DNA from: Verrucomicrobiota bacterium
GTDB taxonomy: Bacteria; Verrucomicrobiota; Verrucomicrobiia; Chthoniobacterales; UBA10450
Direction of reading: 5' to 3'
Assembly (NCBI GenBank): GCA_003220055.1
Contig: QHRF01000083.1
Location: forward strand, 564-64,563
DNA length: 64,000 nt
The notes below the pieces were generated by a model that worked only from the letters and a program-made list of their open reading frames with translations, had not been told where the DNA came from and did no database searches. The position numbers were made by a program, and so were the translations under genes. Numbering within the stretch: the first letter of the stretch is position 1; each line of letters begins with the position of its first letter. Positions 5,691-59,232 of this stretch are shown piece by piece.

Positions 5691-6671
5691 TCATCGATTG
5701 CTAAATGTGGTGAATGAAATTTCCGTTTCCAAACCTTCTGGCGGCAAGGCGTTCGCTACATCTTCTGGGATCGGCGGTAATTGCACCTCTAGGATCGATT
5801 GCAGACACACATTCGCGAAGGCTTCATTGGCGTCATTTGCCATTACCTTGAGATTCCTTACTCGTCCGCTGCGGTCAATCGCAAAGCTGATGCGCGCCGT
5901 CCCGAGGCTGATCAGATCGGTCTTTGCTTCGACGTAGGCGTACCAACGCGAACCAATCGCATCGAAAAGCATTTTTTGATACCGGCCAAGCGGTGTCCCA
6001 ATTGCATTGACTGCGGAGGTGCCACGATTCGTGATCGATCCGGCCAGACGCGTCTTTTGTTTAAAGGGTTGATAACTTGATTTTGGCTGCTGCGGGGTGC
6101 TCGCAGCGCTGGGACGCGGCGTCGGTGTGGAAGTCAACATCGCAAACTCTTCCGATTTTGAAATCGGCGTCGGCTGCGCGCTCGGTTGCGGCGTCGCCGA
6201 TTGCTCCGCCACGCTCGGCTGGGGTTGGGCGCCTTCATTCGGCAACGATTCCCGATGCGAATCCAAATCGATCGTATTGCGATCGACTCCCTGCTGCGAC
6301 GGCAGCGGCATGCTACCAGTCGGCAGAATTTCGCTCGCCGCGATCGAGTTCGCATTCGATTCGAACGTTTTTTCTTTTGGCTGCTCGGTTTGTTTCGATT
6401 CGTCGTTCGGGATGAACATCGCGTTCTTGACCGGCGCGGGCGTGGCCAGATCGACAAACGTCAGCTCAACCGGTTTGTCTTCTTCGATCACCGAAAATGG
6501 CGAATAAAGTAACCCTCCAAAAACCGCGAGCGAATAGCCGATGAGCAAATGAATACCGAGCGCCGCCAGAAGCGCCCAAAGAATCTTGCGCGCCTCCTTC
6601 TTTCTTTCGGCCGCATCGTCCGCCGAATGGCCAATGATGAACTCCGCCGTGGTCATTGAATTCAGAACCAA
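5691..6671 (-). CDS. TonB/TolA-like energy-transducer candidate (N-terminal TM, Pro/Ser/Gln-rich linker, TonB-C-like domain)
   Basis: TM segment ILWALLAALGIHLLIGYSLAVF, a long low-complexity linker, and a C-terminal ...ARISFAIDRSGRVRNLKVMANDANEAFANVCLQSILEVQLPPIP. Located directly upstream of the TolQ/TolR-like genes. Confidence 0.6.
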   Translation of the reverse strand: MVLNSMTTAEFIIGHSADDAAERKKEARKILWALLAALGIHLLIGYSLAVFGGLLYSPFSVIEEDKPVELTFVDLATPAPVKNAMFIPNDESKQTEQPKEKTFESNANSIAASEILPTGSMPLPSQQGVDRNTIDLDSHRESLPNEGAQPQPSVAEQSATPQPSAQPTPISKSEEFAMLTSTPTPRPSAASTPQQPKSSYQPFKQKTRLAGSITNRGTSAVNAIGTPLGRYQKMLFDAIGSRWYAYVEAKTDLISLGTARISFAIDRSGRVRNLKVMANDANEAFANVCLQSILEVQLPPIPEDVANALPPEGLETEISFTTFSNR

Positions 6672-9418: not shown

Positions 9419-11186
9419 TCGCGAGATCACGCAGTTGCCGCGGATCGACGTCGGCTGGTGACTGCGTCATCAGATCCATCCCGCGATTATTTTTCGGGAA
9501 CGCCATCACGTCGCGGATCGATTCCGCACCGCAGAGAAGCATGACGAGCCGATCAAGTCCGAGTGCAATCCCGCCGTGCGGCGGCGCGCCCAGGCGCAGC
9601 GCGCGGAGCAAATGACCGAACATCGATTGTCGATCTTGCGCACTGATCCCAAGTGCTTCGAACATTTTCTCCTGCAACTGCGGCTCATGGATTCGCATGC
9701 TGCCGCCTCCAATCTCCACACCGTCGAGGACGACGTCGTAAGCTTCCGCACGGATCTCGGAAAACTTGTTCCCATCGTCCAGGAGCGAAACATCCTCAGA
9801 TTTGGGTCGGGTGAACGGATGATGGACCGCGTTCCATTTATTTTCTTCGGCGCTCCATTGCAGCAGCGGGAAATCCGTTACCCAGAGGAAGTCCCAGATG
9901 TCCGAGCCGGACGAGCCTTTAACAGAGGTGCCAAGCAAGTCCTGGATCTCGGCAACGCGTAACCGGATCCGCCCAAGCACTTCGCAGGCGATCTCCCATT
10001 TATCGGCGCCGAACAAAATGAGATCGCCTTCTTCGATTTTTAATTTCGACTTCAGCGCAGCTTTCTCGGCGTCGTTGAAGAATTTCACGATCGGCGATTT
10101 CCATTCGCCGTTCTCGACCTTGATGAAAGCAAGCCCTTTCGCGCCGAAAACCTTCGCCGTTTCCGTCAGCTCTTCGATCTGTCCGGTCGTGATTCCGGCA
10201 AAACCTTTCGAGTTGATCGCCTTGACCACGCCGCCCGCGTCGAGCGCGCCGCGAAAAACTTTGAAACCGCTTGCACGGAAATCGTCGCTCACGTCCACCA
10301 GTTCAACCCCGAAACGGCGATCGGGCTTATCACTGCCGAACCGGCCAACGGCTTCGCGATACGTCAGCCGATCGAACGGCGTTTTGATGTCGATGTTGCG
10401 GGCAACTTTGAAAATCGCCCCGAGCATTCCTTCGGTCAGCGCGAAAATATCGTCCGGAGTTACGAACGAGGCTTCGATATCGATTTGAGTAAATTCGGGC
10501 TGCCGATCGGCACGAAGGTCTTCGTCGCGAAAACATTTCGCGATTTGAAAATATTTTTCGACACCAGCGACTTGAAGCAATTGTTTGTATTGCTGCGGCG
10601 CCTGTGGCAGGGCGTAGAACTTTCCCGGCATCAATCGGCTCGGCACCAAGAAATCGCGCGCACCTTCCGGCGTGCTCTTCGACAAAATCGGCGTCTCGAT
10701 TTCGATGTAGCCCTGCGAATCGAGATAATCGCGCGTGGCCTTAGCGGCGCGATGACGGAGGCGCAGATTGCGCGAGAGCTCCGGCCGGCGCAGATCGTAA
10801 TAACGATAGGTCAGCCGCAGATCTTCGTTGTGGATCTCGGCATCGATCGGAAACGGCAAATCGGCCGCGCGATTGAGAATTCGCAACTGACTTGGAATTA
10901 ATTCGATTTCGCCGGTGGCGAGTTTTGAGTTTTCGGTCCCCGGCACGCGCGCCGCGACTTTCCCCGAAACTTGAATCACGTCTTCGCTCCGCAAACCGTG
11001 CGCTTCCTTCGCAAGCTGCGCGTTCTCTTCTGGTCGAAAAACAACTTGAGTGATCCCTTCACGGTCGCGCAGGTCGATAAAAATGACACCGCCATGATCG
11101 CGCGAAACGTGGACCCATCCGGCAAGGGTGGCGTCCTTGCCGATGTCTGTCTTGCGAAGTGAATTGCAGTTGTGCGTCCGGTACAT
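9360..11186 (-). CDS. aspS: Aspartyl-tRNA synthetase
   Basis: Starts MYRTHNCNSLRK. Class II motifs FRDEDLRADRQPEFTQID, GGGSMRIH and GIALGLDRLVMLL. The ATG at 11186 was verified in the sequence. Confidence 0.95.
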   Translation of the reverse strand: MYRTHNCNSLRKTDIGKDATLAGWVHVSRDHGGVIFIDLRDREGITQVVFRPEENAQLAKEAHGLRSEDVIQVSGKVAARVPGTENSKLATGEIELIPSQLRILNRAADLPFPIDAEIHNEDLRLTYRYYDLRRPELSRNLRLRHRAAKATRDYLDSQGYIEIETPILSKSTPEGARDFLVPSRLMPGKFYALPQAPQQYKQLLQVAGVEKYFQIAKCFRDEDLRADRQPEFTQIDIEASFVTPDDIFALTEGMLGAIFKVARNIDIKTPFDRLTYREAVGRFGSDKPDRRFGVELVDVSDDFRASGFKVFRGALDAGGVVKAINSKGFAGITTGQIEELTETAKVFGAKGLAFIKVENGEWKSPIVKFFNDAEKAALKSKLKIEEGDLILFGADKWEIACEVLGRIRLRVAEIQDLLGTSVKGSSGSDIWDFLWVTDFPLLQWSAEENKWNAVHHPFTRPKSEDVSLLDDGNKFSEIRAEAYDVVLDGVEIGGGSMRIHEPQLQEKMFEALGISAQDRQSMFGHLLRALRLGAPPHGGIALGLDRLVMLLCGAESIRDVMAFPKNNRGMDLMTQSPADVDPRQLRDLAIKLAGDARGQSGKESPPKK

Positions 11187-42785: not shown

Positions 42786-43562
42786 TCAGCGTTCAGGTAT
42801 CCATTCACCGCGCACTGGCGCTTCGCGGAACGGGCGGCGGCGCGGAACGCGAATCGGAGCGTTCGCACCTGGTAAGAGCTCGAGAGCGGCAAGAGTTTCC
42901 AAGTCGAGTCGCCCGGTGACCGGAAGGCGGACCCGAGCCTGATAGGCCCGTAAGGAAAATTCCAAACCAGGACTGGGGTACCCGTCGATCGCACCGCGAT
43001 AAAGCCCGCGCCGCGCCAGAAGATTTTGTGCTGAAATGATGACATCCCTCCGAACTTGCGGCGGCGCTGCTTCATACGGTGTGCCAGCAAAATCCTCCGC
43101 CGGATGCGCCGGACCTGTGTCGTAATCCGGTCGGACCGGTAATTGTTCGCCACCGCGAATCCGTCCGTCGGCGGATCGATCTTGCGGCGGTTCCGGAAAC
43201 GGCTGGCCAGTTAAAGGGTTTGTCGGAGCCGAACTTTCTCGCGGTTGGGCGCGCAAGTCCGAAGTTTCCGGCGCAGCCGGCGCTGGAGTTGGGGACGCTT
43301 TTACGATCGCGCGAGCGCCGGAAGAATCGACCCCAAGAGATTTGAGCGTTTCATCATTGAGATCGCCACTGATTTGAAGCCCGTTGCGGATTTGGTAGCG
43401 CCGAATCGCCGCCGTCGTGTCCGCATCTTTTTCGCCAGTAACTTCGCCGTAATAAAAACCCTGGTCCTTCAGCGCTTGCTGCACATTTTGGACGACTTGA
43501 TCTGCCCTTGCTCCTGCCACGAGTGCGGCCACCAGAACCACAACTGCGATCAAAAGTTTCAT
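42786..43562 (-). CDS. Secreted protein with two peptidoglycan-binding (PG_binding_1-like) domains
   Basis: VQQALKDQGFYYGEVTGEKDADTTAAIRRYQIRNGLQISGDLNDETL and AQNLLARRGLYRGAIDGYPSPGLEFSLRAYQ. Confidence 0.75.
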   Translation of the reverse strand: MKLLIAVVVLVAALVAGARADQVVQNVQQALKDQGFYYGEVTGEKDADTTAAIRRYQIRNGLQISGDLNDETLKSLGVDSSGARAIVKASPTPAPAAPETSDLRAQPRESSAPTNPLTGQPFPEPPQDRSADGRIRGGEQLPVRPDYDTGPAHPAEDFAGTPYEAAPPQVRRDVIISAQNLLARRGLYRGAIDGYPSPGLEFSLRAYQARVRLPVTGRLDLETLAALELLPGANAPIRVPRRRPFREAPVRGEWIPER

Positions 43563-43594: not shown

Positions 43595-44395
43595 CTATTC
43601 AGTCCCCGCCCCGGTCACGGCCAGCGGCAGCTGCCGTTCTTTTAAAACGTCGCGATAACGCAGAATACCTTCGCTAATGGCCGCCGCCATCTGTTCGCGG
43701 TAATCGTTACTTTCCAGCTTCGTGATATCGTCCTTGTTGCTAAGAAACCCAGCTTCCACCAGCACCGCCGGGACTCCAACGTTGGCAATCACAAAGAACT
43801 GCTCGGCTTTTGTTCCGCGATCAGGCGCCTTCGTTCGCGCCACCATCGCTTCCTGAATGAACCGGGCCAAACTCTGGCTCGCCAAAGTGGGCGACTCGGC
43901 CGCCGGCCCCTGAAAAAAGGGAATCCACGAAACAAGCCGCGGGGCCGGAGCCGCCTGATGCTCGGCATAATAAGTTTCTACGCCGGCGACCACCTTTTTG
44001 CCTTCATTGAAATGGATGCTGACAAAGATACAATCCCGCGCGCGATTCGTAACTGCCGCGCGATCGGCGAGCGAAACATAACTGTCGCCAACTCGCGTCA
44101 TCAGCGTCGCCAGACCTTGGGCTTGAAGCAATCGATCGACCCGCTGCGCGATGTCGAAAGTCAGATCCTTCTCATAAATTGCGCCGCACATCGCGCCGGA
44201 ATCCTGGCCGCCGTGGCCAGGATCGAGAACAACCAGCGTGAATGGCGCCGGCGCGGCAGTATGGCGCACCGAAGGTTCCGGCCGTGGAGTGGAAAGGACC
44301 TGCCACCAGACGAACGACGCCGCCATCAGCGAAAGTCCCAGCCAGGCGACAATGTTTTTCATTGCCCCGCCGAAGCCGAATCGCCCTTGAAACAT
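43595..44395 (-). CDS. N-acetylmuramoyl-L-alanine amidase (Amidase_3 family)
   Basis: VVLDPGHGGQDSGA, SIHFN, PAVLVEAGFLSN. An alternative ATG at 44362 (MKNIVAWLG) gives a cleaner signal peptide. Confidence 0.85.
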   Translation of the reverse strand: MFQGRFGFGGAMKNIVAWLGLSLMAASFVWWQVLSTPRPEPSVRHTAAPAPFTLVVLDPGHGGQDSGAMCGAIYEKDLTFDIAQRVDRLLQAQGLATLMTRVGDSYVSLADRAAVTNRARDCIFVSIHFNEGKKVVAGVETYYAEHQAAPAPRLVSWIPFFQGPAAESPTLASQSLARFIQEAMVARTKAPDRGTKAEQFFVIANVGVPAVLVEAGFLSNKDDITKLESNDYREQMAAAISEGILRYRDVLKERQLPLAVTGAGTE

Positions 44396-44397
44396 CG

Positions 44398-45174
44398 CTA
44401 CCTTTCAAGACTGGATCGCAGTTCTTCGTCCGCCAAAGTTCGATAACGAATCGCGCTCTTCCGGTCGCGCTCGAGCACGGCCGCTTCAATCCCAGCCTTG
44501 GCCAGCTCCTCTTCTCGGTGTTTGCGAACAGCGTCGCGCTCTGGCAATTCCTTGCTCGCGTTTTCTCCCATCGCCATCCGGCCAACGCTCCATGCATCGA
44601 ATGCCACATTGATCGCATCCGGCAACGCCCCATCGGTGACGTGTTCTTTTTGCAAAAACTTTTCCATCAGCTCTGCCGACTGGCGCGTTCCGCTCAAGAC
44701 TGCAAACCGCTGCCGCGGTTGCCCGGTCAATCCGTCAGCCGCGATTGCGCCGTCGTAATCGATGCGCAAAAACAAATCTTCCTTCGAGCTCGAACCGATC
44801 TCGGCAAAAAGCAACCGCGCAAGGTAGGGGGCACCATAAACTTGCTCGAACGCACTTTTCATTACCGGGCTGAGTGAGTAATGCGCGAGACGACGCAGGG
44901 AAACGTCCGCAGCCGAACGCGTGAAACCCTCCGTGCTCGCCAATTCGATTGCCGCTAGCCGCAGTCGTTCGATATCTCCGGGATGACCAATCGCGCCCAT
45001 CGCGATCCGGTCGTAAATCTCAAAAATCTTTTGCCGCACGCGTCCGAGCGTTACGAAAAGAATTCCGTCACGATATCCGACCGCCGCGATCGGACTCCCC
45101 GCCGCCAGCTGCGTTTCGATGTACTCGCGCCGGTTCGCGATCGCCTCTACCCAACGATACGGCTCTTCGATCAT
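44398..45174 (-). CDS. prcA: 20S proteasome alpha subunit (bacterial PrcA type)
   Basis: Remembered Mycobacterium PrcA blocks line up: EIYDRIAMGAIGHPGDIERLR, PYLARLLFAEIG...LFLRIDYDGAIAADG, IEAAVLERDRKSAIRYR. Its start overlaps the prcB stop (ATGA). Confidence 0.85.
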   Translation of the reverse strand: MIEEPYRWVEAIANRREYIETQLAAGSPIAAVGYRDGILFVTLGRVRQKIFEIYDRIAMGAIGHPGDIERLRLAAIELASTEGFTRSAADVSLRRLAHYSLSPVMKSAFEQVYGAPYLARLLFAEIGSSSKEDLFLRIDYDGAIAADGLTGQPRQRFAVLSGTRQSAELMEKFLQKEHVTDGALPDAINVAFDAWSVGRMAMGENASKELPERDAVRKHREEELAKAGIEAAVLERDRKSAIRYRTLADEELRSSLER

Positions 45175-45986
45175 GCCACCTTTTGTTTGAACACGCTGGC
45201 TATCTTTTGCTCCGGCAACGTTGTGATCCCTTCGCGCGAAACAGTTTTGATCAGTGGAAAAATTTTTCCGCTCCGATCGACTCCGCCGGTGGAAGTGTCC
45301 GCTTCCGCGGCTGTGTCGAGCGCGCGCAATGCGATCGCAATCGCTTCGTCCTCGTTCAATTGCTGCAGCTTCTTGTCGCCCCAGTTGTTTTCGTAATAAA
45401 GGATACCACGCACCGCCGGCGAACCGGAGCCGGTTGCGGCGTAATCCGTCACTTCGAATTGCGCGCCCATCGCGTCGTAAAAATAGAGTCGCGCTTCCGG
45501 TTTTGAATTTCCATCGTAGGTCGCGAAGATCGGCACCACCACGCCGACGCCTTGCATGACGAATCCAAAGTTGTCCCGCAACAATTTGGAAAGGGCGCGC
45601 ACCTTGCCATCCACGCTCATCTCTTGCAACTGCGACCGCCGAAAATATTGAAACGAATGCTCGAGCACACGCGCCATTTCCCAGGCCGTAGCCGGCACAC
45701 CCGCGATGGCCATGATCGAATGGCGATCGATCTCGAGCACCTTGTCCGCGCGATCGTAAACGACGGTATTGCCTGCGGTCGCGCGACGATCGCCCGCTAC
45801 CAGCACGCCGCCCGCAAATTTGAAAGCTAGGATAGTGGTCGACTCCGTCTGAACGAACGGATGATTTCCTGCCGCGCCGGTTGGATCGGGCGCGATTTGG
45901 AGCAAACCTTTGCGCCGCAAGAGCGCCGGGAAATCTTCACTCGCGCCAGAAAAATTCTGGTCCAATGCCAAAGGCGGCTTGTCCAT
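45171..45986 (-). CDS. prcB: 20S proteasome beta subunit (PrcB type) with propeptide
   Basis: The catalytic-Thr context ...ESTTILAFKFAGGVLVAGDRRATAGN... and GSGS...TGG blocks match bacterial PrcB. The ATG at 45986 (MDKPPLAL) is chosen because the longer ORF (to 46124) overlaps the UBact-like ORF. Confidence 0.85.
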   Translation of the reverse strand: MDKPPLALDQNFSGASEDFPALLRRKGLLQIAPDPTGAAGNHPFVQTESTTILAFKFAGGVLVAGDRRATAGNTVVYDRADKVLEIDRHSIMAIAGVPATAWEMARVLEHSFQYFRRSQLQEMSVDGKVRALSKLLRDNFGFVMQGVGVVVPIFATYDGNSKPEARLYFYDAMGAQFEVTDYAATGSGSPAVRGILYYENNWGDKKLQQLNEDEAIAIALRALDTAAEADTSTGGVDRSGKIFPLIKTVSREGITTLPEQKIASVFKQKVA

Positions 45987-46162
45987 TATTGGCCGGTGCG
46001 CTGGCGGTAGCGTTTCGACTGGTTCGGGTCCACCTTCCGCATTTTTTTCAATAAATCTTTCGTGTCCGGCCGCGAGACGTCGGGCGAGCGCGGACCACCT
46101 TCGTCCCCCTGCTTCGGACCCCACGGAGCGGGATCAAACGGCTTTTGCACGCGCTCCGGCAT
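45986..46162 (-). CDS. UBact-like small ubiquitin-like modifier (Pup analogue), 58 aa
   Basis: MPERVQKPFDPAPWGPKQGDEGGPRSPDVSRPDTKDLLKKMRKVDPNQSKRYRQRTGQ. Ends in R-T-G-Q. Located immediately upstream of prcB with a TAATG stop/start overlap. The ATG at 46162 was verified. Confidence 0.7.
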   Translation of the reverse strand: MPERVQKPFDPAPWGPKQGDEGGPRSPDVSRPDTKDLLKKMRKVDPNQSKRYRQRTGQ

Positions 46163-46260
46163 GGCAAAAAATTTAAGGAGAAATGATAAGAAGGCAAGCT
46201 GGCGCCCTCCAGCCGGCCCTGCTTGCCAGCGGAAGCGGCTAATGCCAAAATCGAGGGTTG

Positions 46261-56715: not shown

Positions 56716-59232
56716 CTATCGGTTGTCGATCCGGTCGCTGCTTTCCGGTGCCAGCACACATCGGAATCCGTAAATCACGTCGCGTTCGTTCCGATCGACG
56801 ACGTTGCGATACGACGATTGCATTTCCAAACGATTGCTTGTCGCCCAGGAACCGCCGCGGAGAACTCCCCAATCGCGGCCGGTTCCACTGCTCCCGCCTT
56901 TGTAGGTGTCGGCGCACCATTCCCAAACGTTGCCCCCGAGATCGTAGAGGCCTAACGCATTCGCCTTGAAGCTTCCTACTGGCATGGTCGTGCCGCGACG
57001 TTGCCCCGCGCCAACGAGATAATTTCCCGCGCCGGCGGGCGGCGGCCATTGTTTGCCCCACGGAAACTCGTTTTTGATTTTGCCATCACGCGCTTGCGGC
57101 GTCGCGCCGCTCTCGTTGGCCAACCCAACAGCCAGGCTCCATTCCCGATCAGTCGGCAACCGATAGGATTGTCGATCTTCCAGGAGATTTTCATCGCGCT
57201 CTTTATCGGTCAGCCATTTGCAGAACGCCATTGCGTCGAACCAGTTTACTTTCACCACCGGATGTGTCGGCGCCTGCTGAAAGTCGGCTGGTTCATAATG
57301 CCGTCCGCTCGCGCGGGAAAACGCTTCGTAATCCTGCACCCGCGTTTCCCACACCGATATGCGAACGTCGGCGAGCGGAACGAACTTCATCCCTAACGAA
57401 TTGGCGAACGATTGGCCCGGCTCAGGACCGACGCTTTTTTCCAGGCGCGCCGCCAGAAACGACTGCTGCTGCGGTTCAACCTTGCCGCTGACCGAAGTCG
57501 ACTTATAACCGCCGAGCCGCAGCTCAAACATTACGTCGCCCGGTTTTACCTCCTCGATCACGAGCGGTGTTTGGCCGAGTTCCTTGCCATTAGCGATGAC
57601 CGCTGCGCCGCCGGGCGCACTCGTGATCTTCACACTGCCGTTGGCAAAAACAAAATGAACGGCGTTTTCGTGCTGTGGATCGATGTCGATCTTTTGCTGC
57701 TCGTTAGGCCAACCGTCAAGGTGCGCCGTCAGTTCGTGCGACCGCACCGGTAAATCGAGCCGGAGCGGAGCACGGCCTCGAGATTTTCCATCCGCAAAAA
57801 TCTCAGCTCCACTCGGCTCGCTCGTGATGTTCGTTGTCGCGCTGACGAACGCCAAAACCTTCCGGGCGATTTCTCCGCGACTAACTTCGACTTCGCCTCG
57901 CATTTCCCAATCTCCGCGATGCGCCACGACCAAGTATTTTCCCGTTGGTAAATCGACGATCGATTGGGGCGTTGTCCCCGCGCGCGAAACCTGACCGTCT
58001 TGACTTCGAATGGAGAATTGCGCGCCCGTCGGCTCGGATTGGATTTCAAGTGCGCCTTTGCTGCGGACGAGACGAAACGGCGGCGGATCAAACGACCGCT
58101 TGCCGCTAAGATCCACCGCCGACTCTACCGGCTCATAACCAGGACTCATGATCCGCAGGTTATATTTACGCGGCTCCAGATCCGCGAACGTCGCCGGACT
58201 TTTCTGCGCATGATCGCCCAGGACGACGAGGGCGCCAGGCGGTTCGGTCCGAACCGTCATTTGCAAATGCAGACCGACATTTGGTTGCGGATGGTTCAGC
58301 CAAAACCAAACGCCAGCAACCGCGACCACCAGAATCGACATCGTCGCCAACAAAATTTTCGTGCGCGATTTTCCCGGACGTTCGCCGCGCTCGAGAGCCG
58401 CAAGATCGCGATGCATTTCTGCGGCCGATTCGTAACGTTTCTTCGGATCGTTCGCGCACGCTTTAACCAGCACGTTGTTGAGTTGCAGCAGCTGCTCGCG
58501 ATCGGGTCGCTGGCTCAACTGCGAATCGATCTCCGGAAAATCGAGCCGGTCTTTTCCGGTGCAGGTCTCGTAAAGAAGTTTGCCAAGACTGTAGATGTCG
58601 GCTTGCGGCGTCCCCGGTCCCTCCGGCGGAACATAACCTTCCGTGCCGACGAACGATTGCTGTCCACTCACCGCCACCAACCCGATGTCGGCGAGCTTCG
58701 GCACGCCCTCGGTGAAAATGATGTTCGACGGTTTGATGTCACGATGTGTAAGTCCGTGCGTGTGCAACGCGTCCAACGCTTCAGTTAACGAAATACCGAG
58801 GCGTATCGATTCATCGGCCGACAACCGTTTCTGGCGGCCAAGATCGCTCTTTAACGTCCGCGGCTCGTAACTGAGGATGTCGATCTCGCGACCCGCCAAG
58901 TGATCGTCCGCCAGCTCCATGCTGTAATAGAGATATTCGTTCGTGCGGCCGACGTGCAGGATATCGATGAACCCGGCATGCCCGCGCGAGATCGGCTCGA
59001 AGGCGGACATTCCTTCGAACTCACGCAGGAACGCCCGCTCGCTCTCAAACGTGCTCCGATAAACAATTTTCACCGCGCGGAATGCGCCGGTGACCGTCCG
59101 CGCCAGCCAAATCTCGCCATAAGCGCCGCGCCCGATCACGCGTAGGAGTTCGTGATCGGGAATGATTGGGACTTGAGCGGAAACTTGTTCGGGAATGGTC
59201 GCGATTTTACACAAGCCGCGAGCGCGAGGCAA
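56716..59232 (-). CDS. Ser/Thr protein kinase - TM - PEGA repeats - FGE/SUMF1-like domain fusion
   Basis: GRGAYGEIWLA, HRDIKPSNIIF, DIGLV...GTEGYVPPE. Mid-protein TM ILLATMSILVVAVAGVWFWL, then repeated PEGA-like beta modules. C-terminal GNVWEWCAD...RGGSW...GFRCV. The TTG start is uncertain. Confidence 0.85.
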   Translation of the reverse strand: MPRARGLCKIATIPEQVSAQVPIIPDHELLRVIGRGAYGEIWLARTVTGAFRAVKIVYRSTFESERAFLREFEGMSAFEPISRGHAGFIDILHVGRTNEYLYYSMELADDHLAGREIDILSYEPRTLKSDLGRQKRLSADESIRLGISLTEALDALHTHGLTHRDIKPSNIIFTEGVPKLADIGLVAVSGQQSFVGTEGYVPPEGPGTPQADIYSLGKLLYETCTGKDRLDFPEIDSQLSQRPDREQLLQLNNVLVKACANDPKKRYESAAEMHRDLAALERGERPGKSRTKILLATMSILVVAVAGVWFWLNHPQPNVGLHLQMTVRTEPPGALVVLGDHAQKSPATFADLEPRKYNLRIMSPGYEPVESAVDLSGKRSFDPPPFRLVRSKGALEIQSEPTGAQFSIRSQDGQVSRAGTTPQSIVDLPTGKYLVVAHRGDWEMRGEVEVSRGEIARKVLAFVSATTNITSEPSGAEIFADGKSRGRAPLRLDLPVRSHELTAHLDGWPNEQQKIDIDPQHENAVHFVFANGSVKITSAPGGAAVIANGKELGQTPLVIEEVKPGDVMFELRLGGYKSTSVSGKVEPQQQSFLAARLEKSVGPEPGQSFANSLGMKFVPLADVRISVWETRVQDYEAFSRASGRHYEPADFQQAPTHPVVKVNWFDAMAFCKWLTDKERDENLLEDRQSYRLPTDREWSLAVGLANESGATPQARDGKIKNEFPWGKQWPPPAGAGNYLVGAGQRRGTTMPVGSFKANALGLYDLGGNVWEWCADTYKGGSSGTGRDWGVLRGGSWATSNRLEMQSSYRNVVDRNERDVIYGFRCVLAPESSDRIDNR

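Follow-up and report, generated by a model that had tools for sequence, protein, structure and literature searches.

Does a 58-codon open reading frame (ORF) whose stop codon shares a base with the start of a proteasome gene encode UBact, the predicted bacterial counterpart of ubiquitin and Pup, and where does the rest of its tagging system lie? The question is raised by a 64,000-nucleotide stretch of contig QHRF01000083.1 (assembly GCA_003220055.1, Verrucomicrobiota bacterium), analysed whole and called the window here. An earlier note, made from the letters alone, had proposed a hidden UBact-like gene coupled to the 20S proteasome genes prcB and prcA, with the other components split off elsewhere in the genome. 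UBact is said to have been described as a tag protein by Lehmann, Udasin, Livneh and Ciechanover in 2017 (BBRC 483:946), and Verrucomicrobia were reportedly among the phyla named in the original UBact paper. NCBI lists near-identical PrcB and UBact proteins under 'Verrucomicrobiota bacterium' and 'Chthoniobacterales bacterium', all contigs of the lineage come from soil metagenomes or soil metagenome-assembled genomes (MAGs), and the lineage is a Udaeobacter-like group of Chthoniobacterales, very abundant in soils and uncultured. With a probability of about 0.8, the locus holds a genuine UBact gene in a UBact-prcB-prcA(-amidase-PG-binding protein) string and belongs to a Pup-like system whose gene cluster has been dismantled.

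Identity and start codon of the UBact gene

The minus-strand ORF at 46162..45986 translates to MPERVQKPFDPAPWGPKQGDEGGPRSPDVSRPDTKDLLKKMRKVDPNQSKRYRQRTGQ, 58 amino acids (aa) followed by TAA, and its C-terminus, KRYRQRTGQ, fits the R-T-G-[EQ] ending of the family. The peptide scored 83.7 bits on NF033388 (cut-off 35; profile positions 4-54 of 54, spanning residues 9-58) and 81.9 bits on PF20513 (cut-off 27.8; profile positions 2-43 of 43), and no family besides UBact was matched at E up to 1 in Pfam or NCBIfam. A protein-collection search with the peptide returned 393 close relatives, every one tagged PF20513. NCBI gives the name 'ubiquitin-like protein UBact [Chthoniobacterales bacterium]' to a protein 98% identical to it, and JGI uses the UBact name too. 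With both curated cut-offs exceeded and the public names in agreement, the identity suggested in the earlier note was borne out; judged from its sequence, the ORF is a genuine member of the known UBact family, and its product is probably a small, basic, disordered tag protein.

Its Pup-like size and C-terminal Y-x-Q-[KR]-x-G-[EQ] motif could also be taken to place the gene, as a divergent member, within the Pup family proper, and hhalign did place the UBact and Pup C-termini in register. The same alignment, however, had a probability of 0.5% (E = 0.11). The Pfam and NCBIfam models of Pup gave no match at E up to 1, phmmer against the Pup chains of the PDB returned nothing at E up to 10, and BLASTP against Mycobacterium tuberculosis Pup (sequence verified against the PDB) returned nothing at E up to 100. 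The charge is opposite as well, with an isoelectric point (pI) of 10.2 for UBact and 4.05 for Pup. With the Pfam, NCBIfam, phmmer, BLASTP and hhalign results all negative, Pup homology was rejected, and membership in the Pup family proper is very improbable. Since UBact has no detectable sequence similarity to Pup, 'analogue', the label given to the gene at the outset, is the right word.

Two longer ORFs obscure the gene in a mechanical ORF list, as had been pointed out: an extension of the small ORF to 117 aa (ATG 46339) and a 317-aa prcB ORF (GTG 46124) that overlaps it in another frame. Both exist mechanically, and public calls are often longer, with 66 to 102 aa given to the small gene and 307 to 345 aa to some prcB genes, so one might read the small ORF as no gene at all and one of the longer ORFs as the product. 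Relatives of UBact argue otherwise. Among 120 lineage cluster representatives, right-aligned, the Met at -58 is invariant (120/120), and conservation is 95.6% over the last 58 residues against 31% in the upstream 'extension', which varies in length. Nucleotide differences between the window UBact and six relatives fall mainly at the third codon position and are mostly synonymous; relative to locus L174, 31 synonymous and 6 non-synonymous codons were counted, with 36 of the 45 changed bases at position 3. Substitutions therefore track the UBact frame, which would be unexpected were the prcB extension coding. The UBact profile, moreover, is already matched from its position 4, within the 58 residues, and the 117-aa ORF would overrun the divergent LysM gene and its promoter region. 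The frame and ATG 46162 are fixed by the core conservation, the invariant Met and the codon-position pattern; conservation and codon-position evidence rule out the 117-aa and 317-aa ORFs as real genes, leaving next to no likelihood that either is the product. The UBact ORF is under strong purifying selection in this lineage, as is the 20S core.

The gene is easily missed or mis-started. Most UBact family cluster representatives carry spurious N-terminal extensions, their lengths of 66 to 102 aa arising because callers picked upstream starts, and among 11 lineage contigs UBact was called on seven and left intact but uncalled on four (L007, at 9826-10002; L174, at about 9810-9986; L175 and L176, just upstream of prcB). 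'Hidden', the word of the earlier note, is accurate to that extent and no further, for the gene has already been called and tagged PF20513 on many public contigs: public contigs contain the exact PrcB protein in 79 blocks, with the same neighbouring genes, and on the longest six UBact is called at 58 aa with the PF20513 tag and prcB at 271 aa. Because UBact has curated models and the same protein is named in public records, UBact here is not new, and the locus adds no new kind of system. For annotators, the point is that a considerable fraction of assemblies either omit UBact or start it at the wrong codon.

Proteasome subunits

The gene that follows, prcB, encodes a 271-aa 20S proteasome beta subunit on the minus strand (45171..45986; PF00227, TIGR03690, structure alignment). 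Its propeptide comprises residues 1-49 (45840-45986, minus strand), after which PrcB reads TTILAFKFAGGVLVAGDRRAT, the mature chain opening with Thr1 of TTILAF. Among solved structures, the beta subunits of Rhodococcus and M. tuberculosis come nearest, and their mature residue 1 corresponds to query residue 50. Asp17 and Lys33 were located by counting from Thr1 in TTILAFKFAGGVLVAGDRRATAGNTVVYDRADK; with Thr1, Asp17 and Lys33 in place, the catalytic triad of PrcB is intact. The alpha subunit gene, prcA, encodes 258 aa on the same strand (44398..45174; TIGR03691, PF00227) and follows prcB in all related loci.

PrcB scored 104.4 bits on PF00227, above the cut-off, and its best NCBIfam model was TIGR03690 at 169.9 bits, below the cut-off of 191.9. 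For PrcA the best model was TIGR03691 at 90.3 bits, below the cut-off of 139, and PF00227 gave 24.5 bits against 22.4. The NCBIfam proteasome equivalog cut-offs were tuned on Actinobacteria, and subunits from canonical UBact clusters of other phyla also fall below them, PrcB of locus L012 scoring 177.9 bits on TIGR03690.

Gene order and junctions across related loci

Related loci were collected with a four-sequence PrcB alignment as query and one genome per species. The scan returned 80 loci from Poribacteria, Latescibacterota, Nitrospirota, Nitrospinota and two Verrucomicrobiae MAGs. When these are taken with the other loci retrieved, an ORF ending YRQRTG[EQ] lies directly upstream of prcB in 98 of the 101 loci with a PrcB relative, and at most 128 nt of upstream sequence was available in the other three; a small ORF ending RTG[EQ] at this position is therefore a conserved feature, as anticipated. 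Nearly all the non-verrucomicrobial loci (Poribacteria, Latescibacterota, Nitrospirota, Nitrospinota) have the cluster Mpa-Dop-UBact-PrcB-PrcA-PafA, whose Mpa, Dop and PafA were identified in L012 by TIGR03689, TIGR03688 and TIGR03686, respectively. The 13 loci of the window's own lineage (L001-L007, L074, L077, L172, L174-L176) share a different order, a divergent LysM gene and then UBact-prcB-prcA-Amidase_3-PG_binding.

Both overlaps described in the earlier note are present in the window. The second A of TAATG at 45988-45984 is common to the UBact TAA and the prcB ATG, and at 45174-45171 the prcB TGA overlaps the prcA ATG in ATGA. TAATG is kept in 10 of the 13 lineage loci and is specific to this lineage, canonical UBact loci having a spacer of at least 3 nt before prcB. 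Translational coupling of the three genes through TAATG and ATGA may be expected from these junctions. The two more distant Verrucomicrobiae MAGs, with PrcB 77% identical, end UBact with TGA (L074, about 9950; L077, about 9989) and have a spacer of about 10 nt containing GGAAGGG before prcB in place of TAATG, which makes the overlap recent within the clade.

As a separate observation, locus L108 (11536-13250) carries two UBact ORFs and two PrcB fragments facing each other on opposite strands, either an inverted duplication or an assembly artefact.

A separate Mpa-Dop locus

The statement that no Mpa/ARC, Dop or PafA homologue flanks the operon held within the window. Pfam scans detected none of the three in 22 window proteins. 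Those 22 account for every non-overlapping ORF of 250 aa or more except about three, and ORFs below that length are too short to encode them. Tblastn of the L012 proteins against the whole window gave a best E of 0.7, and a second round with the lineage Dop and Mpa and two canonical PafA sequences gave zero matches.

Two of the missing components were found elsewhere. A metagenome scan with a Dop alignment returned a large group of soil contigs on which Mpa is directly followed by Dop and the rest of the system is absent; the G+C content is 0.54-0.56 in these contigs and 0.557 in the window. The pair is flanked by rfbB/rmlD-like, hemerythrin and DoxX genes on one side and by guaA on the other. 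In 36 metagenome or MAG loci, Dop matches the L124 protein with 80% identity or more; prcB is missing from every one of them, as is a second PafA/Dop gene, and about 30 further loci with Dop 68-79% identical repeat the pattern; canonical clusters appear only where Dop is at most 62% identical to the L124 protein, in other phyla. NCBI names the lineage Dop 'depupylase/deamidase Dop [Candidatus Udaeobacter sp.]' or 'PafA2 family protein [Chthoniobacterales bacterium]'. Assembly ERZ25039506 holds both parts, with Dop (P0526) on contig_3170 (206 kb) and a PrcB relative (P0061) on contig_14747 (1.94 Mb), and both contigs are mirrored in NCBI genomes.

The Dop-like protein of L124 scored 490.8 bits on TIGR03688 (cut-off 492.3) versus 396.5 bits on the PafA model. 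In the lineage Dop, the D-H-A residues stand beside the catalytic Asp, and an S-T-P motif and the Dop-loop (WDYxLEDPHxDARGFR) are present, whereas PafA of the canonical loci has D-M-G-H and no Dop-loop. Both D-H-A/D-M-G-H and the Dop-loop are among the positions that discriminate Dop from PafA (Hecht et al. 2020). By this signature the lineage enzyme is a hydrolase-type Dop, as a Gln-terminated tag requires. UBact ends in Gln in 108 of the 120 lineage representatives and in Glu in the other 12, which fits a working deamidase, and the Dop-like deamidase predicted from the terminal Gln in the window is thereby accounted for in the lineage. The gene directly upstream encodes Mpa, with TIGR03689 as best model (458.5 bits), the Pfam domains Prot_ATP_ID_OB_N, Prot_ATP_ID_OB_C and AAA, and a C-terminal tail (...VI) that agrees with canonical UBact-type Mpa. 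From sequence, both enzymes look functional.

The canonical cluster is broken up in this lineage, UBact-prcBA standing beside cell-wall genes and Mpa-Dop beside guaA. The Mpa-Dop locus therefore supports the split system proposed in the earlier note for the unfoldase and the deamidase; the part of the proposal that concerns PafA did not follow, the ligase not having been found.

Some features of individual Mpa-Dop loci may be recorded. A Leu/Phe-tRNA-protein transferase, an N-end-rule enzyme, is encoded about 3 kb downstream of Dop (L168, 14648-15214; L173, 14174-14740; L150, 13936-14502), placing two degradation-tagging functions close together. Just upstream of Mpa-Dop on ERZ25039506 contig_3170 (L171, 2320-6906), a 624-aa reverse transcriptase (RVT_1) adjoins FRG-domain and NmeDI_C-domain proteins in what looks like an inserted defence island. 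Mpa is in two ORFs of 282 and 273 aa on the long-read contig of L173 (8221-9907), from a frameshift error or as a pseudogene.

The ligase and the weight of the evidence

Several points weigh against the proposed system. No PafA homologue was found within the 18 to 44 kb of window on either side of UBact, within 10 kb of UBact-prcBA in the 13 lineage loci, or within 10 kb of Mpa-Dop in the 36 lineage loci; the ligase of a complete conjugation pathway is presumed to be encoded elsewhere in the genome. PrcB, PrcA, Dop and Mpa all score just or well below their Actinobacteria-trained NCBIfam equivalog cut-offs. Judging by its 'ENA+NCBI' status, ERZ25039506 is presumably one binned genome and not a metagenome assembly. 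To our knowledge, UBact conjugation has not been demonstrated biochemically in any organism, and the searchable literature did not contradict this.

Canonical PafA, compared by tblastn and blastp with the window and all 176 loci, was found in other phyla only, and a scan of viral contigs with a PafA alignment found nothing. These results allow for the lineage having truly lost PafA, with UBact either attached by Dop itself or acting as a non-covalent regulator or adaptor of Mpa-20S. If Dop did the attaching, it could phosphorolyse the terminal Gln amide, and lysine would attack the resulting acyl-phosphate. Such a loss would suit the place after prcA where canonical clusters have PafA, which here is taken by an amidase gene within 2 nt, as well as the absence of PafA from all 36 Mpa-Dop loci and the predominance of terminal Gln, a substrate of Dop and not of PafA. 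Some phyla, including Verrucomicrobia (drafts), have also been noted to show 'one or both' of Dop and PafA (Hecht et al. 2020). Against it, the search for PafA in the lineage reached about 20 kb around each locus, and because the cluster is already in at least two pieces, a third locus carrying the ligase is the simplest expectation. The lineage Dop, moreover, has the full hydrolase signature, and 20 substitutions were required to make mycobacterial Dop a ligase (Hecht et al. 2020). Loss of PafA is on balance unlikely, and a dismantled but Pup-like system is preferred. Were the loss real, a soil lineage among the most abundant would run UBact-Dop-Mpa-20S with the Dop-type enzyme doing the tagging directly on Gln-ended UBact, or with non-covalent UBact, and its confirmation would provide a natural experiment on a Dop-type enzyme as tagging enzyme. 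The unlocated ligase is the one mildly interesting point of the locus, PafA not being where expected.

Neighbouring genes and upstream region

The gene string continues on the minus strand with an N-acetylmuramoyl-L-alanine amidase (Amidase_3; 43595..44395), assigned from the ORF and the PF01520 tag on the identical neighbour in public contigs. It starts 2 nt past the prcA stop and is probably co-transcribed with prcA. Next, in the same orientation, comes a PG_binding_1-domain protein (42786..43562, minus strand), assigned from the ORF and from the PF01471 tag that the neighbour carries on public contigs. The pair fills the PafA slot of canonical clusters and is kept in all lineage loci. Cell-wall amidases are not known to us to be functionally connected with the proteasome.

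Upstream, the intergenic region between UBact and the divergent LysM-protein gene (46163..46260) holds a conserved inverted repeat and promoter-like boxes. The repeat, GGCAAGC (46227-46221) and GCTTGCC (46199-46193), resembles two back-to-back -35-like boxes, and TAAATT (46175-46170), which precedes the UBact ATG by 7 nt, resembles a -10 box. Both CAGCTTGCCTT and the A/T-rich box are conserved when seven lineage loci are aligned, and a consensus scan picked out TTGCCA-17-CAAAAT on the plus strand (46223-46251). On the UBact strand the consensus promoter and terminator scan did no better than shuffled expectation, and no Shine-Dalgarno sequence precedes UBact. The boxes may be a promoter and, given the 7-nt distance of TAAATT and the missing Shine-Dalgarno sequence, the UBact transcript may have little or no leader.

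Further afield, Rfam and tRNA scans of the window were empty. The minus strand carries dnaA at 1497-2897 (Bac_DnaA, DnaA_N and Bac_DnaA_C domains), so the window adjoins a likely replication origin, and other genes in the window include aspS, hisS, leuS, metK, ahcY, glpX and bamA. An 838-aa fusion of a Ser/Thr protein kinase, three PEGA domains and an FGE-sulfatase domain is encoded at 56716-59232 (minus strand), and this gene is also a neighbour in lineage loci L172 and L175. The 326-aa ORF at 5691-6671 (minus strand) had no Pfam match at E up to 1e-4.

Proposed mechanism and comparison with known systems

By analogy with the actinobacterial Pup-proteasome system, Dop would deamidate the terminal Gln of UBact to Glu, a PafA-type ligase would join the gamma-carboxylate of that Glu to lysines of target proteins, the AAA ATPase Mpa would bind the tag and unfold the target, and the PrcA/PrcB 20S core would degrade it. 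Covalent tagging by UBact is what this analogy predicts. The locus shows that an extremely abundant soil lineage has kept the tag and the 20S core while the gene order of pupylation was dismantled.

Iyer et al. (2008) called the Pup gene 'invariably adjacent' to a member of the PafA family, and Barandun et al. (2012) called the gene order of pupylation 'rigidly conserved'. Neither description fits this lineage, and no account of such an exception was found in the searchable literature. Several features are held in common with the actinobacterial system: a small tag ending in G-[EQ], a Dop with D-H-A and the Dop-loop, an Mpa-type AAA ATPase, a 20S core closest to the Rhodococcus and M. tuberculosis subunits, and the position of the tag gene. 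The actinobacterial Mpa ends in the C-terminal motif GQYL. The lineage Mpa, unlike it, ends in ...(S/G)VI, and UBact is basic where Pup is acidic. Within the UBact family, the window gene shows the full-length profile match, a length of 58 aa (about 55-85 aa is usual for the family) and the same position directly upstream of prcB-prcA; it differs from the canonical clusters in that, here and in a broad verrucomicrobial clade, UBact-prcBA stands apart from Mpa-Dop, with PafA at neither locus.

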